Source: Pseudomonadota bacterium | GTDB lineage: Bacteria > Bdellovibrionota > Bdellovibrionia > Bdellovibrionales > Bdellovibrionaceae | Length of the DNA stretch: 64,000 nucleotides | Direction of reading: 5' to 3' | Assembly (NCBI GenBank): GCA_041178425.1 | Contig: JBEGVH010000026.1 | Span: 35,427 to 99,426, forward strand | Shown: positions 18,863 through 54,362 of the stretch, piece after piece | Layout: each line of letters opens with the position of its first letter | How positions within the stretch are numbered: position 1 is the stretch's first letter | Program-made: the position numbers and the translations under genes | Notes under the pieces: generated by a model | What the model was told of the DNA's origin: nothing | Databases searched by the model: none | What the model saw: the letters and a program-made list of their open reading frames with translations, nothing else

Positions 18863-18877
18863 TGGCTTGATAGTTGC
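18863..18877 (+). promoter_or_regulatory. Putative sigma54 promoter of the toxin operon
   Basis: TGGCTT-GATAG-TTGC about 50 nt upstream of ATG 18928. Confidence 0.55.
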
Positions 18878-18927
18878 CTTGTAGCTCTGCACCCTTCAGT
18901 CCCTGGAGGGCTGGAGGTGGCGTTGTC

Positions 18928-19743
18928 ATGTTAACTCTTAAAAAGAGTCGAAAGAGATTGAAAAACTACATGAGTGTTTTTTTGTCTTTGCTGTTTGTGA
19001 ATCCGCTGGCATGGAGCTGTGATCCAAATCAGGATTGTATGTCGTGGGTGAGAGTGCCTTGTCCTACGTGGAAGTACCCTGCACGATCGTGCATGAAGCG
19101 CATCGAGGATGTCCTTTGTTCAGCCGCGCGCAAGGTTTGTCAGAAAGACTGCAAAAGTATCAATCAGGATGCCAACTCCTATATTTTTGGCTTCCGTGGC
19201 GAAAGTGAAAGAATTAAGAACGAAGTCTCAACGATCGAAGCAGCCATTGTCTCTGAGATTCAGCATGGGAATCACTATGCTCATTTGGTCGAAGAATTCA
19301 TCGACTCCTTAGCACAAACAGAAAGGGCCGGAAGCAATGCCCTTTTGCTCTTAACTCGGACCTTGCCCCTGGAGACGTTTTTTCAAGAGAACCAATTATT
19401 TGATTCACCTCTGGCGCAAGTGATCGAGTTAGCAAAAAAATCCCCCGATGCGCAAATTCAGCTCATGGGAGCGCTTCTCGAAAGATCACAAGAATTAGAG
19501 TCTCGAGTGTTTGAGGTATTCGAAACAGAAGGGCTAGTTGAGGCCCTGCAACTCATGGTGATTGTGTTTAAGCAAGAGGCACAGAAGTTAAGGCAGCAAA
19601 TCAGTGCCACGAACCAAATCCGCAAAGAAACAGAGCACAAGAGAGTTTTACTTGAAGCCATCAGAAAGCAGAGAGAGGGAGAACTTCGAATGCTAGACTC
19701 GAATATCAATAAACAGGAGATGAGAAAATGCACACCTTGGTGA
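18928..19743 (+). CDS. Secreted protein, Cys-rich N-terminal domain plus long coiled coil (toxin operon gene 1)
   Basis: GGAGG RBS; signal peptide ending AWS; 7 Cys in about 45 aa and one at the C-terminus; heptad-rich helices. Confidence 0.75.
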   Translation: MLTLKKSRKRLKNYMSVFLSLLFVNPLAWSCDPNQDCMSWVRVPCPTWKYPARSCMKRIEDVLCSAARKVCQKDCKSINQDANSYIFGFRGESERIKNEVSTIEAAIVSEIQHGNHYAHLVEEFIDSLAQTERAGSNALLLLTRTLPLETFFQENQLFDSPLAQVIELAKKSPDAQIQLMGALLERSQELESRVFEVFETEGLVEALQLMVIVFKQEAQKLRQQISATNQIRKETEHKRVLLEAIRKQREGELRMLDSNINKQEMRKCTPW

Positions 19744-20624
19744 TTCCAATGATCATTGTTTTTGGATTGATTGAGGCAAAGGCCAGAATGCCACCGGCTT
19801 TTGGCCCAAAGGCTGTAGCCCTAGAACACATTGTTCATAACTATCAACAGCAGCGGCTTGTTTGGGTCAACATTGCCAAAGGTCTTAAGGCCATCGGTAC
19901 TGATTGTAAACCCACCGGACAAAGCAGCCTCAGCACTCAGATCTTGGCTGATTGCCTTTACAAAATCGATGTCGCCGTTGCCTCCATTGATCGAGCGGAG
20001 GTTCGTTCGCCGCTGCTAAATCGCCGGCTCACTCAAATTCCAAACGAATTTAATTCTATCAGAGAGGCCATTAAAACTGATTGTAATGAAAAACAAAGAT
20101 GGCTGCGGCAGCAAAAAAACATGTTGGCTGAAGTTGGTCATTATCTTTTTTCTCAAATGAAGGATCGCGTTCTCGTAGATATAAAGCACGATTTAAATCA
20201 AATCAGTAAACGGAAGCGATTGGAAAGTCTCTGTTTGTCATCGGACAATAGCTTATCGGTGTTCAAGAAACTGATCTCCTTTTACGAGAGCCAGGCTCCT
20301 GAATACATCGAGTTGGATCGCCTTAGAACTCAGATTGTTTATCAAATTTGGCTTATGGATTTTTTGAAAGATCAATGCCCCTCGCAGCCCTCTCTAACTG
20401 AGATCAGAGAGGTTCTAAAAAAAGTTGAGCTTTTGGTTAATCAAAAAACATTTACCGAATACAAAAAGAGAGCGTGTCACGGGGGTGAGAGTTTTGGAGA
20501 GGTTGAGTCTTTTGAGTGCCTGCAGCTACCGCAAACACCCGAAGCGCTCAGTGTTCTCTCGCGAATGAGTGAGCAAAGTCGGTCGATAAAGTCTGTTAAG
20601 GCTAGCCCAGGAGGAGCTCAATGA
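19728..20624 (+). CDS. Secreted helical Cys-containing hypothetical protein (toxin operon gene 2)
   Basis: AGGAG RBS, overlaps gene 1 by 16 nt, signal peptide ending AKA, 7 Cys. Confidence 0.75.
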   Translation: MHTLVIPMIIVFGLIEAKARMPPAFGPKAVALEHIVHNYQQQRLVWVNIAKGLKAIGTDCKPTGQSSLSTQILADCLYKIDVAVASIDRAEVRSPLLNRRLTQIPNEFNSIREAIKTDCNEKQRWLRQQKNMLAEVGHYLFSQMKDRVLVDIKHDLNQISKRKRLESLCLSSDNSLSVFKKLISFYESQAPEYIELDRLRTQIVYQIWLMDFLKDQCPSQPSLTEIREVLKKVELLVNQKTFTEYKKRACHGGESFGEVESFECLQLPQTPEALSVLSRMSEQSRSIKSVKASPGGAQ

Positions 20625-22123
20625 TATCAACAGGTAAAAAGATTCTTAATATCACCTTGAGTTTTTCTCTTTCGGGGTTTTCTTTGCCTTCGTTTGCACA
20701 GGAAGTAGATCGCCCGGTTTTAGTGAGTTCGGTCATTGAGATTGAGCTCGGTGGCGATGGTGAGCGCTTTGGGCAGTGGAACCGAGAACACACAAAGTAC
20801 CGATGCGAATATGGATGTGGCCCACACCGGTCTTCCGATGGAAATGGCTATGGTAACGGTGCTAATGCAGGGCCTCCGGCATCGAGTGGAGGCGATGGAA
20901 CAAAAGGTTCAAGCGGCGATCATCGTGATAGTCGATTTCACAGGAGTGACCAAGAAAGAAGTCTTAAAACCGAGGAGTCTGCGTGGAGAGACTACCAAGA
21001 CCAGGTGGCGCATAAGAACACGAGTGTGCGAGAGTCGCTGCGACTACTTTGGCAGAAAGAAGACATCCATTTTTATGACGACGATTTGGCTACACTTCTC
21101 CTCCAGCGAGGGAAACCTGCCTCAAGGCAAGAAGATCAATACCAGTCTTCGGAGGATTTTATCGATCGTGCGATGCCTTCTCAATTGAAGAATCACCCTT
21201 ATCTTCCCCTTCGCAGAGATACGCTCGGAGGACTGGTGAGTGACGCCTATCAGAGTCACCATAAAGAGGAACTCTCGATGATTCGTCATGGCTATTTGGC
21301 CCAGCATCCGAAATCACCTCAGGCTAAGGAGGCCTATAGGGCTGGGCTTTTTGCGCTGAAGGAAGCCGATCAGGCCTACTTGCAGGGGTTTATAAAGGCG
21401 GGTGAGTATTTTGAAAAATCAGCTCGATTACTTTTAGATGTAGTGAGTGACCTCAATCCAATGACAGCTCTCACCAAAGATCTCTATCGGGTCTTTGTAG
21501 GAAAAGATCCGGTGACGGGTCTGCCGTTGAGCGCGGGTGAACGTTTAATTTTCGGAGGCCTCTCGATTTTAGGAGTTGTGACGCTTGGGGAATCTTCGCT
21601 CTTAGAGGCGGGATTAGGCCGAATGGTGAAGCTCGTCAATGCTAGCGCTGGTGAAGCGAATACTGTTTTGAAGATTTTTTCACAAGCCAGAGCGATGGCT
21701 CATGCCGCTGGAGTGAATGGGCGAGAGGCATTAAAAAACTTTCTCTCAATCGTTCAAAATGATGTGGGTGCCGTTGGTGATATTGGATTTCTTTTACAGA
21801 GCGTAAATAAACACGGACTTTGGTCGAAGGGGCAATATAAAAAGAGTGTTCAAAATGCTTTTTCGCACTTTAAAAAACACCGCACTGAGTTTCCAGAACT
21901 GAAGAACGGCATTGAGTATGTTGAGGCTGCCCATGACTTTATTACTAGTCCCCCATTGGGAACTTTGTCAAAAACCCGTGCTAACGGAGAGAGAATTTTG
22001 TATTCTCCCACAAGTGACGTGTTTGTTGTTCAAAGTGTGGATGGTGCACCAAAAACAATGTTTAAACCCAATCCCGCGGTTCATGGGTACAAAACCAATA
22101 AGGAGTACTACGATGCCCAATAA
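20621..22123 (+). CDS. Polymorphic toxin: signal peptide, pre-toxin TG domain, C-terminal CdiA-CT/colicin-like RNase domain
   Basis: ATGA overlap; PSFA|QE signal; VGKDPVTGLPLSAGER PT-TG motif; NAFSHFKKHRTEFPE..YVEAAHDF..TRANGERILY..GAPKTMFKP C-terminus. Confidence 0.8.
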   Translation: MISTGKKILNITLSFSLSGFSLPSFAQEVDRPVLVSSVIEIELGGDGERFGQWNREHTKYRCEYGCGPHRSSDGNGYGNGANAGPPASSGGDGTKGSSGDHRDSRFHRSDQERSLKTEESAWRDYQDQVAHKNTSVRESLRLLWQKEDIHFYDDDLATLLLQRGKPASRQEDQYQSSEDFIDRAMPSQLKNHPYLPLRRDTLGGLVSDAYQSHHKEELSMIRHGYLAQHPKSPQAKEAYRAGLFALKEADQAYLQGFIKAGEYFEKSARLLLDVVSDLNPMTALTKDLYRVFVGKDPVTGLPLSAGERLIFGGLSILGVVTLGESSLLEAGLGRMVKLVNASAGEANTVLKIFSQARAMAHAAGVNGREALKNFLSIVQNDVGAVGDIGFLLQSVNKHGLWSKGQYKKSVQNAFSHFKKHRTEFPELKNGIEYVEAAHDFITSPPLGTLSKTRANGERILYSPTSDVFVVQSVDGAPKTMFKPNPAVHGYKTNKEYYDAQ

Positions 22124-22391
22124 GAGTTTTAGCCTATTAAAACAGTGTCGTGTTTGTGGTTATGAATTTGATGATTTGTATCCGTGGGGTGTTGATGGAA
22201 AAACGCCTTCATTTGAAATATGCGATTGCTGTGGAACTGAGTTTGGTCATGATGATGCAACTCTCTTGGCGATTAAACAAAAACGAGCGAAGTGGATCGA
22301 AGGTGGTGCTCTGTGGGCGCGGCCTCAGGTGCGCCCGTCTCATTGGAGTGTGGAAACAGCATTGGCAAAAATTCCTCATGAGTACCTGTGA
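22113..22391 (+). CDS. Putative Cys-rich immunity protein (CxxC...CxCC, CPCC-like)
   Basis: AGGAG RBS then ATG 22113 overlapping the toxin stop; CRVCGY..PWG.DGKTPSFEICDCCGTEFG..D..R.KW; no signal peptide. Confidence 0.8.
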   Translation: MPNKSFSLLKQCRVCGYEFDDLYPWGVDGKTPSFEICDCCGTEFGHDDATLLAIKQKRAKWIEGGALWARPQVRPSHWSVETALAKIPHEYL

Positions 22392-22410: not shown

Positions 22411-23172
22411 CTAACGTGATCCCTGTGAGTACTCGTTCTCGGTATCGTTTTGGTTGAGAAGTGTTGGATGCCGGGGGGTATGTCCCTTTTTGCAGTACTT
22501 CGATTCGATTCGGTGAATAGAATAGTCGAAGGTTTTGTAGTTCGAAAATAAGTTGGGAGAATAGAACGTCGGATTTTTCGCAAGAAAATGATAGCATGTT
22601 TGTCCGAACGTTATATAGCGTGTGTAATCACACGGCGTGGAATCAAGCAACGCCTGAGCACGAGTGAATTGGGATTTTGAATCAAAGTGAGTGTCTACAT
22701 AACAGGCGCCATTCATTGGACGAATCCCCTTTGGGCACTCGGCGATGCTCACCGTTTCGCTTTTTCTTCGGTTGGGGTTCTGATCATTCTCTGTTTTCAT
22801 ACACGACATGTTTCCGATTTTCCAGAAAAGAGGCTTCGTTGAATTGCAATGAAAAAAACTGACAGGCCGCAATTGGTATGGTTTTTGGTTTTGCGATTCT
22901 GAAGCTGTGTTAATTTGTTCAGATTCCAATTTAAAACAACTTTTACCATCAGAGAGGAATACGGGCTTGCCTTTATTGCAAAGGCTAGCGTCGCGAATAA
23001 TTTCATTTTCTCCCGAAGAATCACTCTCAGCTCTCTCGACACAGTGGCCGTTATTATTCCAATAAACTAGCGGTACGCCTGCTTGCGCGGCGACTCCGTA
23101 AGAAAGAACGCTGACTGTCAAGATGAGTGACGCGATCAGTGGTGTGGCCGTTCTTTTTTGCGGTTTCTTCAT
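22411..23172 (-). CDS. Secreted Cys-rich repeat protein
   Basis: GAGGA RBS before ATG 23172; signal peptide AQA|G; three P-x-(Y/F/W)...C..E...C repeats. Confidence 0.7.
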   Translation of the reverse strand: MKKPQKRTATPLIASLILTVSVLSYGVAAQAGVPLVYWNNNGHCVERAESDSSGENEIIRDASLCNKGKPVFLSDGKSCFKLESEQINTASESQNQKPYQLRPVSFFHCNSTKPLFWKIGNMSCMKTENDQNPNRRKSETVSIAECPKGIRPMNGACYVDTHFDSKSQFTRAQALLDSTPCDYTRYITFGQTCYHFLAKNPTFYSPNLFSNYKTFDYSIHRIESKYCKKGHTPRHPTLLNQNDTENEYSQGSR

Positions 23173-23209
23173 GGTTTCCTCATCTAAAAAATCCTCATTG
23201 TTTACTTCT

Positions 23210-23224
23210 GCAAACAAAGTGCCG
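23210..23224 (-). promoter_or_regulatory. Putative sigma54 promoter
   Basis: Minus strand CGGCAC-TTTGT-TTGC, 38 nt upstream of ATG 23172. Confidence 0.6.
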
Positions 23225-23253
23225 ATGGAATGTCTCAAAATGAGGCATGCGTT

Positions 23254-42685: not shown

Positions 42686-45600
42686 TCACTTTTTCGCTAA
42701 GTCAGTGACTTCCACCATGCGGCCAGTATCGAAAAAGATGTCGTAGCTATTGCAGCCGCTCTTACCGCACTGACGAGGGCCAAAGAATTTCGCCTGGTAC
42801 TTAATCACGTTACCGTTGCTCCATTGTTTGTCGGTGGGAACATCCTGGTACTTAACTCCAATACTCGATACGCTCATTTGGCTCAGCGTTTTGAGCTCGT
42901 GGGGTTCAGATCCACCGTTTTTGTTCATATCAAGCCAAACAAGAAGTTTGCCATAGACGGAATCCTTTTGGTCTATCAGACCATCGTTATTTTCATCGTA
43001 TTGTTTGAGGGCCTCGTAGCCATTAGAGGCTAGTTTTCCATTTTGTAATCGAGTGAATTGGCCAAAGAGCTCTCGGCCATCATCAATCTGACCATTGTGA
43101 TTGAGGTCGAGGCCCAGGAGTCCCCCTTGGTGCCCAGCAATCCAGCCGGTATTGATAGGCTTGCCGTCTCCCATGAGATCAAATTTCACCTCTGAATCTT
43201 GAGGGATTGTTTGAATCATGCCCTTGTTCACAAAGTCGAGAGCGATGGGGCTATAAAGTGTGGTGCGGTAACCGATCGTCGTCCCGACTTGTTCTTTGCC
43301 GCTTCCATCCACGCGAACTGGAGTGACGGTGAAATAGTTTGCCTGTGACCAATTCGTTGATTTCATGCAGCCATCGTAGACCGCGAAGCGATCCATGAGG
43401 TTCGGCAATTGTAGATCGTAGCGGCCTTTGGGAAGAGTCTTGTCGGAGACCGCCGAGAAGATCGTTCTCGCTTGCCTAGGGCTTAAGAGATCAGATTGTG
43501 AGGTAGGTGCTGCCACGTTAGCGACATCAACGGTGTAGTTCGATCCGGCCGCGCAGTTGTTGGCTCCTGCAGAAGAAACCTTAACTCGGTTAAAGGTTCC
43601 CCAGAGTCGCAAGATCATATTGCTCTTGTTGTTTTCAAAGGATCCCACCCGAAAGTTAATCCAACACATGGGGGTCGAAATATATCCCGATCCAGCCCCC
43701 TGAGCGAACACTGGGTCGTTGATTCCGCTACTGCAGCTGGACGAGAACGCCCAGCCATCAGTACTTGCGTTCACTGTCCCGGCTCCAATGTTATAGTAAG
43801 CGAGATTTGGCAAAATATGGCGCACAGCCGTCAACACGGGTGTGTACACCGGGCCAGCCGCCTTAATCAAGGCCGCTTGGATTTCGGCTTGTAAGGACGC
43901 ATCCAAACTCGCCTTGGCAATGTTCACTTTTGCTAAGATGGTTGATCCAGCCACGCGAGTATCAGCACCGGCCGCAAAGGCCACATAAGGGAGCACATTG
44001 CCCATGGTTGTCTTGAGGCCGCTAACATCTTGGTAGTAGGCGGTGAGGTTGGTGTTGATATCTTTAACGGCGCGATTAAATTCCATCTGCCAAGAGTCTT
44101 CTTGGGGGCTTAATGAACGCGCGAGTTCAATAAATCGGTCGTATTTACGGCGAGCATCATCGGCCGAGTATTTATCACGACCAGCGCGAGCCAAAAGCAG
44201 GGCGAGTGAATTGATTTGCTTTAGGAGCTTGTCTTCGGATTCGGAGATTTGAGCATCGCTCACAGCCATAGCTCGTATTTTCATTTCGGCCGACGTAATA
44301 CGGTTTTTTAAACCTTTGAAGTTTATTCGTAAGCTTTCAACCGCTCTTGGCAAAACTAAACTATTTGAAATCGCTGTACGCAAGGAGTTGTTGTTGCTTG
44401 AGTTATCATCGAGCAAGGTGGCTTTAGCCCAGCCGTCGATCGCAGCAATACAAGCAGCCGTAGGGCGAGCTTCCATCCCGTCGTAATCGAGCATATAGGC
44501 TGCGAGTGCTTGTGATAGAATGGCCGAGCCAACCATGTCGGACTGATCGGTCTGACCGGTAAAGAAGATACGGTTGTTACTGTCGGAAGCACTACGCATT
44601 CCACTGAGGAGCATTTTCATGTATGCAATCCCCAAAAGACGGAACGAGTCTCTTCCGATCACGCGCGCAAAAGGTGTTGTTTTTATTTCGCCGCAGGTTG
44701 CACCGACGGCTGCCTTGAGGCTGGCATCAAAGAAAGGGAGTTTATCTTGGTCAGCCAAGCCATTAAGAATAAGAGCTTTCATAAACTCTTCGTCAACATC
44801 TCTGAGCATTAAGGGCATTGAAGCGAGTATATCGATGATCGCGTCACGGTCTTGCATAAAGAGAGCATTGATCTCGTCGCTTGTTTTTTTGTTAAAGCCA
44901 ACAAGCGGAGAGAGTGATACTGGAAAGGCCGTTTCACGAAGATTCACATAACTGGCCTGAATAGCATAGAGCGCCTTGGCCGATTCACTGAGTTCGTCTT
45001 TAAATCCATCATCGGCTCCAGCAATTGAAGCAATCTTTCCACCTAAGGCGTTGGTTATAGCGGTTAGTCGATCTTTAGTTTTATCATCTAACACCGACAA
45101 CTTAGACTCTAAGTCTTGCTTAGTTATGTTGAGTGCTTGGGCGGCGCGAACCTTTTCGTTTTCAAAGTCTGTTCGGAGGGAGCTAATCTGCGAAGCTAGA
45201 TTTGCCTGAACGCCGTTGATCTTTTGATCCAGTTGCGCATCGCGAAGGGCAAGGGCGTATGTGGCCCCAAAGAGACCGCACGCTTTCCAGCTGTCTTCGT
45301 TACACTCGGCAGCAGAAGCAGAAGAGCTAATGTCTCCCACCAGTGACTTAATCATTCCGTCATTCACGCCTTCTGGAGCTTCTAAACAACCGGGGTTACA
45401 CTCTTTTCCACCCCAAATAGCCAAGCCCTGAACTTCTGTTCGTTGATTGAGGAAGTGAATGGCAATGTCTTGGCGAATGTTTATAAGGATGTTTAGTCGT
45501 TCCGATGCCGTCTTACTCGTCCAGCTTCGGCAATTTTGCGGAGCCACAGGCTTACCTGTGTCATCAAGGCATTCACCGCAAAAGGTCGGGTACTTCATGG

Positions 45601-46660
45601 CGCACATCTCATAAAGCACAATTTCTTTATTTTTTGTACAGGCTTCGCTCACGCTGGTGCGGTAGTCGGCAAGAAACTCTTCAAAGGTGGCCTTTTTTTG
45701 GCCTAAGAGAAGTTCAATTCCGTTGCGAGTATCGAGATCTTGATTACACTTCCAGTCGTTGATGGCTGCTTCATAAGAACTTGAACCGGCATTTTTGAGA
45801 GTTGTGAGTTCTTGGTTAATAGAGGCAACCACTCTGTTGTTTTCTTCGGTGTTCTTCGCGACTGAGGCCACGAAAACATCATAGGAGCCCTTGAAGTTGG
45901 CCATGTCGGAGCCCTGTTGTACCACCACGCCATTGAGTTGCTGGTACATATTAATAGCCGACTCCGCAAGTCGGACCCCATAGTCGGCACGTTCTTTGGC
46001 GGCCTTGATGCCAGCTTGCATTTGAGCTTTGTCCGCAATGTATTCTTTAATGTGTTCAGCGAGGGCCAACTTTCCCTGAGCTTCAACAACTTCAAGCTGT
46101 TTATTGGTCAGATCAATATCTTTTTGAAGGAGTTTGTCGGCATTATCTACGTACGCGAGAACTCTTTTTTCGAGAGCGGGAATGACCTCATTGTTAATTC
46201 GATCGACTTGGCCTTGAAGATTCTTAAGGTTGCCGAAGATCACGTCAATTTGACCTTGAAGAACGAGAAAATTAATTCGGTCTCGCATTTTTGAAAGGGA
46301 GTCGACGAGTTTGGTGTAGAGTTTCAATACGTCGTTGGAGTTTGTTGGCATTTGCATTTCGAAGATCAATTGCTTAATCTTTTCAAGTGAGCGAGCCATG
46401 TTGGGGCTGAGTGTGGAGAGATAGGAGTCTCCTGGGTATTCAGCCATCTGCTTGATTCCAGCTTCAGCATCATTGATTGTTTCGAAGATAAAATCTTCGC
46501 TCGTGATTTTTGTGCTGGAAACATCTTTTACGTAGTTGAAGGGCGTTGTGTTATTACAGTTCGTGCCGTAGGCAAAAACGAACGATAGAATGCCCACGTA
46601 GAACACGAGATAATACTTTCTCTTGTAAATGAAATTTATGAACGACTTGAAATCTTTCAT
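42686..46660 (-). CDS. Giant coiled-coil surface protein B with C-terminal FrpC-type self-processing-module-like (Ca-binding) domain
   Basis: AGGGGG RBS before ATG 46660; hydrophobic N-terminus ending AYGTNC; long heptads; YSPIALDF...FDLMGDG..TGW...DLNHNGQIDDGRELFG...GYEAL..YD.N.DG.ID..D...L.VW.D.N.NG.S...EL.TL. Confidence 0.85.
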   Translation of the reverse strand: MKDFKSFINFIYKRKYYLVFYVGILSFVFAYGTNCNNTTPFNYVKDVSSTKITSEDFIFETINDAEAGIKQMAEYPGDSYLSTLSPNMARSLEKIKQLIFEMQMPTNSNDVLKLYTKLVDSLSKMRDRINFLVLQGQIDVIFGNLKNLQGQVDRINNEVIPALEKRVLAYVDNADKLLQKDIDLTNKQLEVVEAQGKLALAEHIKEYIADKAQMQAGIKAAKERADYGVRLAESAINMYQQLNGVVVQQGSDMANFKGSYDVFVASVAKNTEENNRVVASINQELTTLKNAGSSSYEAAINDWKCNQDLDTRNGIELLLGQKKATFEEFLADYRTSVSEACTKNKEIVLYEMCAMKYPTFCGECLDDTGKPVAPQNCRSWTSKTASERLNILINIRQDIAIHFLNQRTEVQGLAIWGGKECNPGCLEAPEGVNDGMIKSLVGDISSSASAAECNEDSWKACGLFGATYALALRDAQLDQKINGVQANLASQISSLRTDFENEKVRAAQALNITKQDLESKLSVLDDKTKDRLTAITNALGGKIASIAGADDGFKDELSESAKALYAIQASYVNLRETAFPVSLSPLVGFNKKTSDEINALFMQDRDAIIDILASMPLMLRDVDEEFMKALILNGLADQDKLPFFDASLKAAVGATCGEIKTTPFARVIGRDSFRLLGIAYMKMLLSGMRSASDSNNRIFFTGQTDQSDMVGSAILSQALAAYMLDYDGMEARPTAACIAAIDGWAKATLLDDNSSNNNSLRTAISNSLVLPRAVESLRINFKGLKNRITSAEMKIRAMAVSDAQISESEDKLLKQINSLALLLARAGRDKYSADDARRKYDRFIELARSLSPQEDSWQMEFNRAVKDINTNLTAYYQDVSGLKTTMGNVLPYVAFAAGADTRVAGSTILAKVNIAKASLDASLQAEIQAALIKAAGPVYTPVLTAVRHILPNLAYYNIGAGTVNASTDGWAFSSSCSSGINDPVFAQGAGSGYISTPMCWINFRVGSFENNKSNMILRLWGTFNRVKVSSAGANNCAAGSNYTVDVANVAAPTSQSDLLSPRQARTIFSAVSDKTLPKGRYDLQLPNLMDRFAVYDGCMKSTNWSQANYFTVTPVRVDGSGKEQVGTTIGYRTTLYSPIALDFVNKGMIQTIPQDSEVKFDLMGDGKPINTGWIAGHQGGLLGLDLNHNGQIDDGRELFGQFTRLQNGKLASNGYEALKQYDENNDGLIDQKDSVYGKLLVWLDMNKNGGSEPHELKTLSQMSVSSIGVKYQDVPTDKQWSNGNVIKYQAKFFGPRQCGKSGCNSYDIFFDTGRMVEVTDLAKK

Positions 46661-46897
46661 GTTTACCCCCTGATAACGGACCTGCAACGTAACCATATCC
46701 TCGCAGGAATGGCTGGTCTCTCTAGTTTATTTGGTTTGCATTGATACCTAAAGTTAATTTGTTTTAGGGCTTCTTTTTGATACATTCGAAATTTAATTTT
46801 GAAACAAGACCTGCCTGAATTTGAACCAATGAAGGCCATTGATGAGCCGAAGTGACGGCCTAGGGAGGTCTTATTATAGTTAATCGTTTAGATCGTC

Positions 46898-48853
46898 TCA
46901 TTCTGGTAGATTGGATGACTGTTTCAATTCTCGCAGTGAATGGTTCTCAGCCTCGAGGGCTTCTAATTTTTGACGGATCAGTTCCAGTTCGATGTGTTGC
47001 TCCTGAGCCAGTTCTTGAGCCTTTTTTATATGAACATTGTGGAGCTCTTTGATGGCATTAATAGCCGCCCAATGAATAGGATCGACATTGAGCTCTAGAT
47101 AACCTCTGGGATTCAGTTGCACGGCCTCGGGAATGACTTTTTGAATTTCTTGAGCATTAAAACCACTGAGCTCAACCTCATGCGGTAGTCCAAGGGAGTT
47201 CTCATTTTTGTAGCGATAATGAATGGGTTGAATCTTTAAAATATCTTCGAGTCCATACCGGAACTCCCCACCGATTTCCTGTAGGCGTTCATCCGATGCG
47301 ATTCTCCATGATGAGCCCGAACTAAGGCCTGCCGAGCCCACGACATGCAAGGTATTTTCTGGGTTGGGAGTGCCAATGCCCACATTTCCTTGGCTGGTGA
47401 TACGAAGCCTTTCTGCCGGGCGTTCGTTTTGGGGTTCTCGTTCACTGGTAGAACCGGTGTTGAAAGTGAGATCCATGGAGGAAGTCGATGTATTTTCTGC
47501 GTCGACAACTCCGGAAATGGAGGCTCCGATTTGGGTTTGTTGATCACCCATCTTACGTCGTATTTTTAGCGCATCGAAAACAGTTTCTTTTCGTTCCTTC
47601 AAGGGAGGGAGCAGGCTTAATAAGGGTGGCGGCAGCTGGAGCTCTTCCACTCTGGCGGGCATTGGTTCCGCGAGGGGCGGTTCGTTGAGTTGGAGGGCCA
47701 CTGCACCGGCCGAGGCGCTGATCTGTGGAAGACTATGGGAATAATCGTGGATGTTATTTTCGTCAGGAGGTTTCACCTCAGTCAGAGCCTGCGGCGGTTG
47801 CGGAGGAACAGGAACAGGTGTTTCTATTGTTGGCGCGCGCAGGAGAGTTGTTTTTGGCTCAAACGGTTCGTCTGGTTCCTGGGGTTTTTCTGCTTCGGTG
47901 ATGGATGGGGCCGAAGCTGTCGTGGGTGCGGGAGCGACAACCGATTTTTCATGTGCCGCCGCAGAAAGGCTCATGATGTGCTCTTTGAGTCTCAAGCCTA
48001 CTGCAGTGAATTGTTGAAAGTCATCGTTTTTTCGAACCTTAAAAGGGCGGTAGTTTCCGCCGATAAGATCGTCGATGTAGCGTTCGAGAGCATAGACCGG
48101 GCCCGCCACGCGATGCGAGATGGATTTGCCAAAAATAAAAAGAGCACCAATAAAAATGGCCGTAACAGCACAGAGACTGAGTACAAAGGGGTAAAGGTAA
48201 CCGTGAAGCATTTCCGTGTCGCCATTGGTAAGCGTACTCAGCGTGACTCGCAGATAGGTATAGGCCAGAATACTCACAATAAGGGCCATACTCAAAGAGG
48301 AGATGGTGAGAATGAAACAATACTTCAGTTGAAACTTTAAATTGATCCAGCGAGTTTTGCGAACGTTGGCATCGGGCCAAAAAACATCAGCGTACTTGAA
48401 GAGGCTCACTAAAATCATTAGATGGCCAATCCATTGCATGAGATCGGCGATATTAAAGACCGGTGTCACTTTGTCTTTGTAGTATTTTATGCTTACAAAA
48501 TCGATGACGGCGCCCCAGGTGATTCGGTCGGCCACATTGCCAATGATTCCACCGATCAATAGAGCTAAGCCAATCCGAAGAATGATGGCGCGTGTGGGGA
48601 GTAAGTATTGGATCACAAAGAAGCTAAAAAAGAGAAAAGCTCCAGCTGTTGATAGCGTTACGATTCGTAGAACATCAGGAAGCTGTTTAAACATTCCAAG
48701 CATGGCGCCAGAGTTGTATTGGAGAGAGAATACAAAAGGCCCGTAGTAATGAATACTTGAATACTTGAGTGCCTCCAACTTGGTGTAGCGATCGACTACC
48801 CAAGTGAGCACAATAGCAAGAATCATCCAAAACCAATCAAGTTTACGAAGCAC
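46898..48853 (-). CDS. Fusion: lipoprotein signal peptidase II (LspA) - 2TM/HAMP-like - Pro-rich linker - fibre repeat - S74 domain
   Basis: NSGAMLG, GGIIGNVADR..GAVIDF, FNIAD LspA motifs; SHRVAGPVYAL..R.NDDF HAMP-like; ERLRITSQGNVGIGT; SDERLQ..GFNAQEIQKVIPEAV; GTG start 48853 with AGGAG. Confidence 0.82.
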   Translation of the reverse strand: MLRKLDWFWMILAIVLTWVVDRYTKLEALKYSSIHYYGPFVFSLQYNSGAMLGMFKQLPDVLRIVTLSTAGAFLFFSFFVIQYLLPTRAIILRIGLALLIGGIIGNVADRITWGAVIDFVSIKYYKDKVTPVFNIADLMQWIGHLMILVSLFKYADVFWPDANVRKTRWINLKFQLKYCFILTISSLSMALIVSILAYTYLRVTLSTLTNGDTEMLHGYLYPFVLSLCAVTAIFIGALFIFGKSISHRVAGPVYALERYIDDLIGGNYRPFKVRKNDDFQQFTAVGLRLKEHIMSLSAAAHEKSVVAPAPTTASAPSITEAEKPQEPDEPFEPKTTLLRAPTIETPVPVPPQPPQALTEVKPPDENNIHDYSHSLPQISASAGAVALQLNEPPLAEPMPARVEELQLPPPLLSLLPPLKERKETVFDALKIRRKMGDQQTQIGASISGVVDAENTSTSSMDLTFNTGSTSEREPQNERPAERLRITSQGNVGIGTPNPENTLHVVGSAGLSSGSSWRIASDERLQEIGGEFRYGLEDILKIQPIHYRYKNENSLGLPHEVELSGFNAQEIQKVIPEAVQLNPRGYLELNVDPIHWAAINAIKELHNVHIKKAQELAQEQHIELELIRQKLEALEAENHSLRELKQSSNLPE

Positions 48854-48873
48854 GCATTTTTCTCCTGCTTTTC

Positions 48874-48901
48874 TTATCGGCGGGAGGTTCAAAAAACTGT
48901 G
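48874..48901 (-). promoter_or_regulatory. Possible sigma28 (FliA) promoter
   Basis: Exact GCCGATAA -10 box 20 nt upstream of the GTG; -35 (CACAGTTT) is a weak match. Confidence 0.35.
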
Positions 48902-50411: not shown

Positions 50412-53400
50412 TTACTGCTTGGCAAGATTTGGTACCTCTACCAGACGACCGGTTTCAAAGAATATATCGTAACTGTTACAGCCTTTTTTGCCACACTGGC
50501 GAGGTCCGAAAAACTTGGCTTGGTATTTAACCATATTGCCATTGTTGATCTGATTCTTTGCAGGCACTTCTTTGTAGTTGACCGCTATTTTTGTTACGTC
50601 CATTTCTGCAAGAGTCTTCATTTCGAAAGGCTCAGAAACACCGTTCACATTGTTATCAAACCAAACCAGCAGATTGTGGTATGCAGGGTCTTTATTATCG
50701 ATGACACCGTCCTTATTAACATCGTATTGAGCGAGAGCCTCGTACCCGTTCTTCGCCAAGCGCCCATTGGGCAATTGAGTGAATTGTCCAAAGAGCTCAC
50801 GGCCATCATCGATGTGACCATTATTATTTAAGTCGATTCCCAAGAAAGCTCCTTGTCGCCCCGAAACCCACCCTGTATGGGTCGGTTGACCATCGCCTGT
50901 GAGGTCAAATTTCACCTCGGAGTCTTGGGCTAAGGTTTCGATCATCCCTTTGTTGACGAAGTCGAGAACGATAGGACTGTAAAGGGTTGAGCGGTAGCCA
51001 ACTGCTGTGCCGAGCACTTCGCCTCCGTTGCCGTCCACTCGCACTGGTGTGACGGTGAAGAAGCTTGCTCGATTCCAGTTAGTTTGCTCCATACAGGCAC
51101 CGCCGTAATAGTAGGCGTCGAACAATTTTGGAACCTGAAGATCATAGCGTCCCTTTGGTCCAGCCGCATCGACTTTCGAAGCGTAAATCATTCTGTGACT
51201 CTGGGGAGATAATAAATCATTTTGAGATGTCGGAGTGGTGACCGTTGCTACATCCAGTCGGTACACAGAATCATTGCTAGCCGCACAATTGTTGGCCCCT
51301 GCTGGTTTGACAATAAAGCGATTGGCGCTACCCCAAACTCTCAGAATCATATTGTGTTTATTGGCTTCCATAGATCCATTTCTCATATTAACCCAACACA
51401 AATAGCTTCCTTGAATGTATCCCGCCGACTTGGATTCACTAAACACCACGTCGTTCATATTACTTGTGCAACTGGAAGCGACGGCGCCAGTGCCGAGGTT
51501 GTATCCTGCGTAATTGGGAAGAATATGTCGGATCGAGGTGACCTCTGGCGTGTAATTAGCCGTTGCCACAGCGGCATTCACCTGAGCCAAAATACTTGCA
51601 TCGAGGGTTGCTTTTGCCGCGTTCACTTTGGCAAGGATTGTCGAACCGGCCACTCTCGAATCGGCGTTGGCAGCGAATGCGACATAGGGAATAATGTTAC
51701 TCATATTAGTTTTCAACGAGGTCACATCTTGATAGTAAGAGGTTAGATTTGTATTTACTTGTCTCAAGGCAGTGTTGAACTCCATTTGCCATGAATCCGT
51801 TTGAGGGCTCAGGCTACGCGCTAACTCTGTGAGGGAATCAAAGCGTCGACGAGCAACATCCGAAGAAAACTTATCCCTTCCGGCTTTTGCTAATAGGAAA
51901 GCGAGTTTGTTGATTTGCGTGGTGAGAGTGGCTTCGGCTTCAGGCACTTGGGTGTCGGATACGGCCATGGCTCGCACTTTCATTTCGATCGCGTTGACCC
52001 GATTTTTTAAGCCATCATAGGAAATTCGTAAAGACTCCACCGCGCGTGGAAGTGTAAGGCTATTCGAAATGGCTGTACGAAGAGCACTGTTATTTGATGA
52101 CGAATTATCGAGAAGTTCCGCTTTGGCCCAGGCATCAATCGCAGACAAACAAGCGGCTGACGGATTGGCCTCAACCGCATCATAACTAAGCATATACGCT
52201 GTAAGGGCCTGGCTCAGAATGGCTGAGCCTACCATATCGGATCGGTCGGTTTGGCCCGAAAAGAAAATGCGATTATTAGAGTCAGAGGTGCTTCGAACAC
52301 CATTGATTAGTTCTTTGATGTAGGCAATCCCTAATAAGCGGAATGAGTCACGACCAATCACCCGATTAAACGGCGATTTGGTAATCGCCCCGCAAGTCGT
52401 TCCCAGAGCTGACGCCATGCTGGCATCAAAGAAAGGAAGATTATTTTGGTCGGCCAAATTGGAAGTGATCAACGCTTTCATGAATTCGCGATCAACATCG
52501 TTCAGTAGTGCCGGCAAGTTGGCGAGGATATCAACAAGGGCATCTCGGTCTTGCATAAAGATCGCATTGATTTCATCGGCCGATTTGGTTTTAAAACCAA
52601 CTAAGGGTGTCAGCGAGGTTGGAAAAGCCGTTTCTCTCAAGCTCACGTAGCTTGCTTGAACAGCGTAGAGTGTTTTTGAGGCGGCGTCTAACTCATCTGC
52701 GAAAGATTGATCGGCACCAGCAATCGAAGTGATCTTGCCTCCGAGAGCATTGGTGATAGCGCCTAGTCGATCCTTGGTTTTATCGTCGAGAGTAGAGATC
52801 TTGGCCTCGAGATCTTGCTTTGTCATATTGAGAGCCTGTGCGGCACGAACTTTTTCGTTTTCAAAGTCGGTTCGCAAAGAGTCGATTTGAGCGGCGAGGT
52901 TCGCTTGGACGCCATTGATCTTTTGGTCTAGTTGAGCATCGCGAAGAGCAAGGGCATAGGTCGCGCCAAAAAGTCCGCAGGCTTTCCAGCTATCTTCCGT
53001 ACAAACCGAAGTAGATCCAGAAGAAGCATTCAGATCTCCAACAAGAGATTTAATCATATTGTCGCTCACACCCTCTGGAGCCTCTAAACAACTGGCGTTA
53101 CAGTCCTTTCCGCCCCAAATGGCTAGGCCCTGAACTTCGGTGCGTTGATTAAGAAAGTGAATCGCAATGTCTTGGCGAAGGTTAATAAGTATATTAAGTC
53201 GTTCCGATGCCGTCTTGTTCATCCAACTCGCACAAGAGTTGGGAGGCACAGGAGTTCCGTTTGCATCCAGACACTCACCGCAGAAGGTGGGGTATTGAAG
53301 GGCACACATATTGTAGAGCATGAGTTCTTTGCTGCGAGTACAAGCTTCGCTCACATTGGTTTGATACGCATTGACGAACTCGTTAAAATTGGCAGCGCGC

Positions 53401-54362
53401 TGACCGAGCATCAGCTCAATACCATTGCGAGTATCGAGGTCTTCGGTACATTTCCAGTCTTTCATAGCGGCATCGTAAGAGCTGTTGCTTGCGTTTTTAA
53501 GTGCGGCCAACTCACCATTGATCGCATTCACAATTTTATTGTTCTCTTCGGTATTTTTTGAAACGGCAGCAACAAAGACGTCGTAAGACCCTTTAAAGCT
53601 CTTCATCTCCGAACCCTGCTGAGCCACAACGCCGTTTAATTGTTGATACATATTGATAGCTGACTCTGCGAGTCTGACCCCATAGTCAGCCCGTTCTTTA
53701 GCGGCTTTAATGTCAGCCTGCATTTGTGTCTTATCAGCCATGTAGTTTTTGATATGATCTGCGAGGGCGGCTTTGCCCTGTGCTTCGACGAGTTCGAGTT
53801 GTTTTCCTGTGAGGTCAATATCTTTTTGGAGCATTTTGTCGGCGTTATCGACATAGGAGATCATTCGTTTCTCAAGGGCTGGAATAACCTCGTTGTTAAT
53901 TCGATCAACCTGACCTTGGAGATTCTTAAGGTTTCCGAAGATCACGTCGATTTGGCCTTGAAGAACGAGAAAATTAATTCGGTCACGCATTTTCGACAGG
54001 GAGTCGACGAGTTTTGTATAGAGTTTTAAAACGTCGTTAGAATTGGTTGGCAGTTGCAAGTCGAAGATGAGGTTTTTAATTTTATCAAGAGAGCGAGCCA
54101 TGTTGGGGCTAAGGGTCGAAAGGTAGCTGTCTCCAGGATACTCAGACATTTGTTTAATCCCGGCTTCTGCATCGTTGATCGTTTCGAAGATGAAGTCTTC
54201 ACTCGCTATTTTTTGACTGCTGATATCTTTTACGTAATTAAAAGGTGTGGTGTTATTACAGTTTGTCCCGTAGGCAAATACAAAGGACAAAATCGCAACG
54301 TAAAAGGTGAGATAGATTCCTCTGGCTTTCGCACGATTGAGCCAATTTTTTAAAAAATTCAT
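50412..54362 (-). CDS. Giant coiled-coil surface protein A, paralog of 42686-46660, with C-terminal self-processing-module-like domain
   Basis: GGAGG RBS; colinear with paralog B over its full length; YSPIVLDF...DLNNNGHIDDGRELFG. Confidence 0.85.
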   Translation of the reverse strand: MNFLKNWLNRAKARGIYLTFYVAILSFVFAYGTNCNNTTPFNYVKDISSQKIASEDFIFETINDAEAGIKQMSEYPGDSYLSTLSPNMARSLDKIKNLIFDLQLPTNSNDVLKLYTKLVDSLSKMRDRINFLVLQGQIDVIFGNLKNLQGQVDRINNEVIPALEKRMISYVDNADKMLQKDIDLTGKQLELVEAQGKAALADHIKNYMADKTQMQADIKAAKERADYGVRLAESAINMYQQLNGVVAQQGSEMKSFKGSYDVFVAAVSKNTEENNKIVNAINGELAALKNASNSSYDAAMKDWKCTEDLDTRNGIELMLGQRAANFNEFVNAYQTNVSEACTRSKELMLYNMCALQYPTFCGECLDANGTPVPPNSCASWMNKTASERLNILINLRQDIAIHFLNQRTEVQGLAIWGGKDCNASCLEAPEGVSDNMIKSLVGDLNASSGSTSVCTEDSWKACGLFGATYALALRDAQLDQKINGVQANLAAQIDSLRTDFENEKVRAAQALNMTKQDLEAKISTLDDKTKDRLGAITNALGGKITSIAGADQSFADELDAASKTLYAVQASYVSLRETAFPTSLTPLVGFKTKSADEINAIFMQDRDALVDILANLPALLNDVDREFMKALITSNLADQNNLPFFDASMASALGTTCGAITKSPFNRVIGRDSFRLLGIAYIKELINGVRSTSDSNNRIFFSGQTDRSDMVGSAILSQALTAYMLSYDAVEANPSAACLSAIDAWAKAELLDNSSSNNSALRTAISNSLTLPRAVESLRISYDGLKNRVNAIEMKVRAMAVSDTQVPEAEATLTTQINKLAFLLAKAGRDKFSSDVARRRFDSLTELARSLSPQTDSWQMEFNTALRQVNTNLTSYYQDVTSLKTNMSNIIPYVAFAANADSRVAGSTILAKVNAAKATLDASILAQVNAAVATANYTPEVTSIRHILPNYAGYNLGTGAVASSCTSNMNDVVFSESKSAGYIQGSYLCWVNMRNGSMEANKHNMILRVWGSANRFIVKPAGANNCAASNDSVYRLDVATVTTPTSQNDLLSPQSHRMIYASKVDAAGPKGRYDLQVPKLFDAYYYGGACMEQTNWNRASFFTVTPVRVDGNGGEVLGTAVGYRSTLYSPIVLDFVNKGMIETLAQDSEVKFDLTGDGQPTHTGWVSGRQGAFLGIDLNNNGHIDDGRELFGQFTQLPNGRLAKNGYEALAQYDVNKDGVIDNKDPAYHNLLVWFDNNVNGVSEPFEMKTLAEMDVTKIAVNYKEVPAKNQINNGNMVKYQAKFFGPRQCGKKGCNSYDIFFETGRLVEVPNLAKQ

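Follow-up and report, generated by a model that had tools for sequence, protein, structure and literature searches.

Polymorphic toxins that leave the cell by way of Sec form an established class, listed under type II secretion ('T2SS') by Zhang 2012 (PMC3482391), and MafB, with mafA upstream of it, is described as one such Sec-dependent polymorphic toxin (PMC5349182). The pre-toxin domain PT-TG entered the literature as a Gram-positive domain, the counterpart of PT-VENN (PMC3113570). In the LXG-Lap systems of type VIIb secretion (T7SSb), a tripartite helical bundle is the secretion signal (PMC10801868), and the umbrella toxin particles of Streptomyces (UmbA/B/C) form extracellularly, when proteins encoded side by side gather around a polymorphic toxin whose tip is exchangeable (PMC11062931). 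For the PT-TG proteins of diderm bacteria no trafficking system is known, according to the 2026 Pandoomain survey (PMC13483458), whose supplementary table includes 10 Bdellovibrio proteins and one Bacteriovorax protein with PT-TG only, for example one of 472 aa. Here we describe a four-gene cassette from a member of the Bdellovibrionaceae (assembly GCA_041178425.1, contig JBEGVH010000026.1), found in a stretch of 64,000 nt that is referred to hereafter as the window. By sequence comparison the cassette is a real polymorphic toxin-immunity system, in which gene 3 encodes a PT-TG toxin, gene 4 its immunity protein and genes 1 and 2 two predicted exported partners (Table 1).

Gene 3 is ordered as a signal-like N-terminus, a G/S-rich low-complexity stretch, a helical region, PT-TG, a linker and a C-terminal toxin tip. 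Sequence and model comparisons identify the tip as a CdiA-CT of the 8EY4 type with a predicted colicin-D-like BECR domain, in agreement with the sequence-only reading, which had likened this C-terminus to CdiA-CT and colicin-like BECR RNases. Residues 409-488 matched chain A of 8EY4 in a phmmer search of the PDB (E 8.3e-24, 46-48% identity), and a profile built from the tip reached 8EY4 at E 2.5e-37. The entry is titled 'Contact-dependent growth inhibition toxin-immunity protein complex from E. coli O32:H37'. The predicted tip model consists of N-terminal helices followed by a four-stranded antiparallel sheet, a BECR fold like that of colicin D. Foldseek matched it to 8ey4_A (E 6e-8, template modelling (TM) score 0.87), with colicin D tRNase chains next (probability 1.0, TM 0.55-0.59). 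VIA-align gave Z 14.1 for 8ey4_A (88 aligned residues, root-mean-square deviation 2.0), 7.5 and 7.0 for colicin D, 5.5 for the CdiA-CT of P. aeruginosa and about 5 for toxins of the RelE/BrnT type. Colicin D was not reached by sequence with the tip profile in the PDB, no Pfam family matched the last 120 aa of gene 3 even at E up to 10, and a literature search on 8EY4 found no paper.

An alignment of 38 tips has conserved columns that include N15, H19, H23, Y36, G59 and a P-x-T-M-F-x-P block, and a Lys directly before the second His (K22) is the majority residue of its column; in the window both His lie within HFKKH. A His preceded by Lys in the N-terminal helix is the active-site arrangement described for colicin-like BECR RNases (10.64898/2026.08.28.747851). 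The tip would most likely cleave tRNA or other RNA in the cytoplasm of the target bacterium, an assignment that draws on the BECR fold and on H19, K22 and H23.

The same tip occurs on many other proteins. When one genome per species was scanned, 105 relatives of the tip came to light and 80 loci were retained, and the hosts included Gammaproteobacteria, Betaproteobacteria, Bacteroidota, Planctomycetota, Chlamydiota, Elusimicrobiota, Patescibacteria, Actinomycetota and four Bdellovibrionota. When 46 toxin tails of up to 560 aa each were scanned for families, CdiA markers were present in five, RHS repeats in eight, PT-HINT in three, PAAR with Pyocin_S in six, Pyocin_S alone in one, and PT-TG, ALF repeats and TPR in one each; the scan gave no family for the other 20. 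The tip of gene 3 is shared with other delivery platforms (CdiA, Rhs, PT-HINT, PAAR-Pyocin_S, ALF, PT-TG), as the definition of a polymorphic toxin has it.

Gene 4 encodes a small protein with five Cys and no hydrophobic N-terminus, in keeping with the cytoplasmic, Cys-rich immunity protein that had been proposed for it. In 31 of the 80 loci, which come from many phyla, the gene immediately 3' of the tip was a gene-4 homologue (phmmer E 2.4e-17 to 2.5e-30). Such a homologue was missing from 35 of the 66 loci L036-L101, and 29 of the 30 downstream open reading frames (ORFs) scanned at these loci were members of Cys_rich_CPCC (PF14206), as were those of L055 and L076; the scan covered loci other than L097-L099 and L102-L115. 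The two kinds of protein are related, since the gene-4 family profile aligned to the CPCC profile with an hhalign probability of 96.3% (E 1.5e-9) and a CxxC...CxCC zinc ribbon is common to both. Among the relatives of gene 4, C12, C15, C37, C39 and C40 are invariant. Gene 4 itself had no PF14206 match at E up to 1 and no match in the PDB by sequence. In the solved complex, chain I of 8EY4 is a CPCC protein (E 2e-30). Because of its position 3' of the tip, its kinship with CPCC and the identity of chain I, we assign gene 4 by homology as the cognate immunity protein, from a divergent branch of the CPCC family. That tip and immunity gene make up a functional toxin-immunity module is very probable. 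In a metagenome-assembled genome of Waddliaceae, five consecutive genes of the gene-4 type follow an Rhs toxin that has this tip (L077:6290-8796), forming an immunity array.

Outside the tip, gene 3 has few close relatives. Whole-protein searches returned a single one (P0002, 52% identity over the full length); another protein (P0003) and one Rhs protein had the tip in common with it. The conserved core at aa 215-343 is the only part of gene 3 that is kept across the family. PT-TG (PF14449), the sole Pfam match of gene 3, fell on aa 272-331 with 31 bits against a gathering cut-off of 23.5 and was also above the Pfam cut-off in 12 of 15 family-level relatives; its motif GKDPVTG, which the sequence-only reading had placed near 21500, occupies aa 293-299 and begins at nt 21497. 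The G/S-rich linker and the NDVGAVG junction that had been noted in gene 3 were likewise found (Table 1). Comparable G/S-rich stretches occur in the relatives, and the junction motif, as N[ED]VGA[ILV], recurs in P0002, L036 and L076, all of which carry the same tip as gene 3.

As judged from 182 genomes of the window's taxonomic family, 16 contain a match to gene 3 aa about 190-355. A profile of the core matched 41 of 401 genomes sampled across the phylum Bdellovibrionota, in 11 families; a scan of metagenomes with a scaffold-core pattern gave 71 pattern matches, and no relative was among them. The relatives follow a common plan, with a hydrophobic N-terminus, a variable N-terminal part that is often rich in G, S and N, a helical hairpin, PT-TG with a Gly-rich hydrophobic helix, and unrelated C-termini. 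Thirty-two scaffold proteins fell into eight tip clusters, so that the scaffold carries at least eight tip types, one of them Ntox46, and no cluster of downstream genes spanned two tip clusters. Unrelated C-termini on a shared scaffold refute the possibility, named earlier as one that would undo the proposal, that homologues have invariant C-termini, and they place the proteins within the definition of polymorphic toxins in the sense of Zhang 2012. The synteny that had been named as a check is also kept, in 16 of 16 assessable family loci, and both the tips and the downstream genes vary.

The distribution of the scaffold bears on the possibility that the cassette is a weapon of predation, in which the products of genes 1, 2 and 3 (A, B and C) would push the RNase across the prey inner membrane from within or at the prey periplasm and so stop translation, while gene 4 would only guard the producer during synthesis. 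The scaffold occurs across a predatory phylum, secreted hydrolases abound in the window (two trypsin-like proteases, a lipase, esterases and a GH3), and a predator in the periplasm would have one further prey membrane to cross. Presence is patchy, however, both in the phylum (41/401) and in the family (16/182), which shows that predation does not depend on the cassette. In addition, at least eight exchangeable tips with matched immunity are a signature of conflict among relatives, and the same tip-immunity pair is found elsewhere in interbacterial systems (contact-dependent growth inhibition (CDI), Rhs and type VI secretion (T6SS)). We therefore regard a dedicated role in killing prey as distinctly unlikely, relative to a role in toxin-immunity conflict.

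The two genes upstream of the toxin gene encode helical proteins of rare families. Neither they nor their positional counterparts in the relatives matched a Pfam or NCBIfam family, and the two were unrelated to each other by profile. In gene 1 the N-terminal part is rich in Cys and a long antiparallel coiled coil is predicted; a search of 5.8 billion proteins returned just 2 homologues (47-48% identity), and two Cys, one of them no more than five residues from the C-terminus, are invariant in five syntenic relatives. Its Atlas model resembled coiled-coil hairpins only, and the structure rows were generic coiled coils. The best feature match in the Atlas, 'putative CagL' at 0.76, was below the reliable range and was set aside. 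A gene-2 profile matched 36 representatives among 1.84 billion proteins, and in 25 members of this family (11-23% identity) six Cys are the only invariant columns. No fused form of gene 2 was present in the 36 profile matches, whose lengths were 69-315 aa besides one weak match to a 943-aa repeat protein. The AF2 model of gene 2 (mean predicted local distance difference test (pLDDT) 73.8) is all-helical with long bundles. Its fold search returned only generic helical bundles (Z up to 11.9), and in the Atlas it had no usable feature match and structure rows with TM 0.55 or lower. By sequence, then, genes 1 and 2 are disulfide-marked helical proteins without known relatives and are predicted to be exported.

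Two helical proteins directly upstream of a PT-TG toxin recall the LXG-Lap arrangement (PMC10801868, PMC13483458), in which case genes 1 and 2 might be cytoplasmic chaperones of the Lap/WXG kind that keep the toxin competent for export by a dedicated machine, as for the LXG toxins of type VII secretion (T7SS). We find this highly improbable. Both proteins have hydrophobic N-termini and conserved Cys, six of them invariant in the gene-2 relatives, features that fit an oxidising compartment; they are 250-300 aa long rather than about 100-150 aa, LXG was not matched by gene 3 at E up to 1, and the phylum is diderm. ClyA/Hbl, LXG/Lap and WXG chains were not among the matches listed in the fold searches of genes 2 and 3, in which helical noise was high. 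Genes 1-3 also had no Pfam match to the ClyA/Hbl/Nhe/Ahl kind, and the fold searches of genes 2 and 3, with their high helical noise, gave generic bundles here too (Z up to 7.0 for the helical parts of gene 3).

Synteny ties the partner genes to the toxin. All 16 family-level loci that could be assessed, three of the 19 being cut by contig ends, have two genes tightly linked upstream of the toxin gene, on its strand and abutting or overlapping. The gene-2 family was strong in five of the 182 family genomes, and every copy was directly upstream of a gene-3 relative, as the sequence-only reading had anticipated; the other 10 matches were weak (E 1.4e-4 or worse). The upstream families co-vary with the toxin N-terminal clusters and not with the tips. 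Two main cassette types were recognised, that of the window (five genomes of five genera) and that of a genus with many complete 3.8-Mb genomes; since one type is present in complete genomes of a single genus, genetics is feasible. In this type with complete genomes (L020-L030) two more conserved genes follow the cassette, which encode a lipoprotein-like protein of ~220 aa and a signal-bearing protein of ~366 aa, neither with a Pfam family. A scaffold toxin at L166:5778-7382 lacks an upstream partner, and its first about 65 residues resemble the partner N-terminus of L163, L165, L168 and L169; a partial fusion of partner and toxin was considered at this locus and not relied on (36.5% identity over 52 aa including the signal region, E 5e-4).

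These arrangements have to be weighed against an account in which the toxin acts alone and diffuses as a colicin-like bacteriocin. Receptor binding and translocation would then fall to its disordered G/S-rich N-terminus and its helical region, and genes 1 and 2 would have some other secreted role, for example in adhesion or in the envelope. The tip fold is colicin-D-like, and many of the relatives have G/S/N-rich low-complexity sequence after the N-terminus. Colicin translocation domains look like such stretches. The partner families are not conserved between lineages, and 5 of 20 phylum-level loci carry toxin and immunity genes and no partners, among them L158 (the same DNA as L036), with the same tip as gene 3. 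On the other side stand the overlapping or abutting pair of genes at every assessable family locus, a gene-2 family that is never found away from the toxin (5/5 in 182 genomes) and upstream families that change together with the toxin N-terminus. On balance we judge a toxin that acts alone to be unlikely.

Export was assessed with a crude hydropathy test of N-termini, for which we set our own threshold of 1.8. A signal-like N-terminus was present in 43 of 52 upstream proteins and 29 of 32 toxins, compared to 1 of 32 downstream proteins. The Sec signal that the sequence-only reading had seen on gene 3 is borne out by the relatives and by a signal-like N-terminus on gene 3 itself, but not by the score of that protein, which lies under the threshold. 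The proposal that genes 1-3 assemble to carry the nuclease was addressed with a complex model of gene 1 aa 29-271, gene 2 aa 20-298 and gene 3 aa 27-400. The model scored 0.58 (three runs: 0.58, 0.00 and 0.58), compared to 0.00 for the best of three controls, and the score fell to 0.00 when an unrelated protein replaced gene 2; both results lend the assembly weak support, and the second argues, equally weakly, against a toxin that acts alone. The runs agreed in at least 10% of contacts, and partner pLDDT was at least 49. In calibration 116 of 157 solved complexes and 2 of 215 mismatches came up to the mark, and scores of 0.60 or less comprised 18 of the 157 solved complexes and both passing mismatches; the model used its own alignments and three chains, unlike the calibration set. 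Assembly of the three proteins is thus favoured weakly, as a putative carrier of the nuclease.

Markers of known delivery systems were looked for in gene 3 and in the genome. Gene 3 lacks FHA, VENN, Rhs, PAAR, VgrG, LXG and MafB domains in Pfam (LXG at E up to 1), in line with the earlier statement on Rhs, VgrG/PAAR and LXG, and the T6SS sheath gene (TssC) had no match in the genome, which is rated 100% complete, with a positive control in E. coli. A search for ShlB (CdiB) gave no match in the genome, and the control genomes were silent too. Four secretins are encoded, and a secretin-based step, vesicles or surface exposure are possible outer-membrane routes.

Taken as a whole, the reading we favour, with a confidence somewhat better than even, is that of an exported PT-TG toxin with its immunity protein, for which genes 1 and 2 supply toxin-matched escort or targeting subunits. 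The toxin would be made with a Sec-type signal; its N-terminal part varies, its helical and PT-TG scaffold is conserved, and its C-terminal tip can be exchanged. Gene 4 would remain in the producer cytoplasm, where it would bind and block the tip and so shield the producer and its kin. After Sec export the disulfide-stabilised products of genes 1 and 2 would most likely bind the N-terminal part of the toxin in the periplasm and act in release across the outer membrane, in recognition of the target, or in both; the tip would then cut tRNA or other RNA in the target cytoplasm. In this sequence-based account, homology identifies the families of the tip and of the immunity protein and supports polymorphism, synteny and export signatures. 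The steps that we infer are cleavage of RNA, attachment of A and B to C, the way out through the outer membrane and passage of the tip through the target envelope, and a role for the partners as delivery subunits is plausible. A stronger version can be entertained only tentatively, at well under an even chance. In it the Bdellovibrionota would own a Sec-dependent device in which two lineage-matched helical proteins and the N-terminus of the PT-TG toxin form a tripartite particle, and this particle would deliver a cytoplasm-acting nuclease through the envelope of a rival predator or prey without type V secretion (T5SS), T6SS or T7SS. With a like degree of reserve, such a particle might by analogy be the diderm counterpart of the LXG-Lap bundle or of the umbrella particles.

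Several observations weigh against the escort reading. The partners of the two main cassette types have no profile similarity to each other (hhalign probability about 1%), so that a common mechanism is assumed rather than shown. Linked upstream genes, one to three in number, were present at 12 of the 20 phylum-level loci, absent from five and unclear at three, and the nearest toxin with the same tip and immunity gene (L158) is one of those that lack them. The N-terminus of gene 3 in the window scored 1.51 in the hydropathy test. The AlphaFold model of gene 3, made from a 17-row alignment, had a mean pLDDT of 55.8 and was confident only at aa 210-310 (65-90) and in the tip at aa 405-500 (82-92), and the N-terminal part was poorly modelled (pLDDT below 50 over aa 13-207). 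The complex model passed weakly, with one of three runs at 0.00, and RNase activity is argued from the fold and the conserved His and Lys.

The four genes lie on the same strand and, as described before, overlap successively by 16, 4 and 11 nt in the ORF listing. GGAGG, AGGAG or AAGGAG precedes the ATG of each of them by 6-14 nt, and a sigma54-type box stands upstream (Table 1). The sequence TGGC-N7-TTGC occurs eight times in the window (6338, 7176, 18863, 31393, 42476, 48423, 54999 and 61230), compared to 2.30 ± 1.40 in shuffled sequence, and none of 100 shuffles reached eight; this enrichment suggests that sigma54 promoters are frequent in the window. RpoN (rpoN) is encoded in the genome. 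A looser box, TGG-N9/10-TGC, was present within 220 nt 5' of the first partner gene in 6 of 14 related loci, where we estimate by our own arithmetic a chance expectation of ~0.1 per locus. The locus is probably one operon that is read from a putative sigma54 promoter.

Table 1. Features of the cassette, with positions numbered from the first nucleotide of the window
Feature	Position (nt)	Strand	Description
Sigma54-type -24/-12 box	18863..18877	+	TGGCTTGATAGTTGC; 51 nt 5' of gene 1 ATG; candidate promoter
Gene 1 (A)	18928..19743	+	271 aa from ATG 18928; alternative TTG start at 18874 (ORF 18874-19743)
Gene 2 (B)	19728..20624	+	298 aa; predicted exported, all-helical, six conserved Cys
Gene 3 (C)	20621..22123	+	500-aa polymorphic toxin
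G/S-rich low-complexity stretch, gene 3 aa 60-110	20798..20950	+	12 G and 8 S in 51 residues; predicted disordered
Conserved scaffold core, gene 3 aa 215-343	21263..21649	+	Helical hairpin, PT-TG (Pfam aa 272-331), hydrophobic Gly-rich helix LIFGGLSILGVVTLG
NDVGAVG junction motif, gene 3 aa 380-386	21758..21778	+	Precedes toxin tip
Toxin tip, gene 3 aa 405-500	21833..22123	+	8EY4 CdiA-CT family, predicted colicin-D-like BECR fold; HFKKH (H-x3-H, Lys before second His)
Gene 4 (D)	22113..22391	+	92 aa from ATG 22113, within frame 21912-22391; predicted cytoplasmic zinc-ribbon immunity protein

PT-TG, the tip and the immunity gene are each present once in the genome, and the sequencing runs that hold the locus are DNA only, from freshwater and lagoon metagenomes. 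The genes that flank the cassette are not conserved along with it. A flanking 456-aa protein was found in none of four genomes of the same genus and the permease matches had only 25-28% identity, these genomes being too divergent to test for an island. Directly after gene 4 a convergent gene (22411-23238, minus strand) encodes a 275-aa Cys-rich protein with a hydrophobic N-terminal segment; it has no family and is not conserved with the cassette. Elsewhere in the window, all on the minus strand, a 664-aa frame at 46898-48892 combines a Peptidase_A8 signal peptidase II domain (aa 27-165) with a Peptidase_S74 'chaperone of endosialidase' domain (aa 533-591) and is either an odd fusion or two genes read through in ORF picking. 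An 833-aa protein at 312-2813 ends in a Peptidase_S74 intramolecular-chaperone domain, as in tail-fibre-like trimeric adhesins, and frames of 1336 and 1316 aa at 42686-46696 and 50412-54362 have no Pfam family at E 1e-5.

Compared to the CdiA-CT/CdiI pair of E. coli O32:H37 (8EY4; 'PT-VENN domain-containing protein' and 'Cys_rich_CPCC domain-containing protein'), the tip is homologous and the immunity protein a distant relative. Gene 3 differs from that CDI toxin in having neither FHA repeats nor a VENN motif, its delivery is probably not by CdiA/CdiB, its tip has a longer C-terminal tail (HGY.TN..Y.AQ), and gene 4 lies below the Pfam threshold for CPCC. With the tRNase domain of colicin D (1V74, 1TFO/1TFK, 5ZNM) the tip has in common the BECR fold class and the Lys-His pair in the N-terminal helix, but there is no similarity at the level of sequence and the immunity family is different. 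The Maf systems of Neisseria (mafA-mafB-mafI) are alike in that a diderm toxin with a Sec signal and a lineage-restricted N-terminal domain has a lineage-restricted exported accessory gene directly upstream and an immunity gene downstream (PMC5349182). In contrast to Maf, genes 1-3 have no DUF1020 and no homology to MafA, two accessory genes are present, neither of which encodes a lipoprotein by sequence, and the pre-toxin domain is PT-TG. LXG-Lap loci, like this one, have PT-TG, two helical partner genes upstream and an immunity gene downstream. While those systems are monoderm, cytoplasmic and T7SS-dependent, the cassette described here has three Sec-type N-termini, conserved disulfide Cys and no detectable LXG domain. 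The umbrella particles are linked to the cassette by a Streptomyces ALF-repeat protein that bears the same tip family (L101), but ALF repeats, lectins and trypsin-like spokes are not found here, and assembly here is putative.

Literature searches on Bdellovibrio toxins and immunity, on PT-TG together with a signal peptide and on WP_011164617 found no description of the cassette. In the main text of the Pandoomain survey (PMC13483458) Bdellovibrio has 0 occurrences, and signal peptides, upstream partners, tips and immunity genes of these proteins are not described there. The delivery route that the sequence-only reading had called undescribed is thus so with respect to its partner and trafficking module, but the wider class of Sec-dependent polymorphic toxins is an established one (PMC3482391, PMC5349182). 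Should the partners have no part in delivery, a solved toxin-immunity pair has nonetheless gained a new and well-supported host in this locus; if they are delivery subunits, the locus represents a new way for diderm bacteria to deliver nucleases. Were the reading true, bacterial predators would wage toxin-immunity conflicts. In either case the open question of how diderm PT-TG proteins are secreted takes a concrete form here, with a Sec-type signal, presence in about a tenth of the sampled Bdellovibrionota genomes, at least eight tips and, usually, exported co-varying partners upstream. The toxin and immunity genes add a new member to a family that is already known and structurally solved. The scaffold, together with the exported partners that co-vary with it, makes up an undescribed variant of the Sec-dependent polymorphic toxin systems and is widespread in a predatory phylum.

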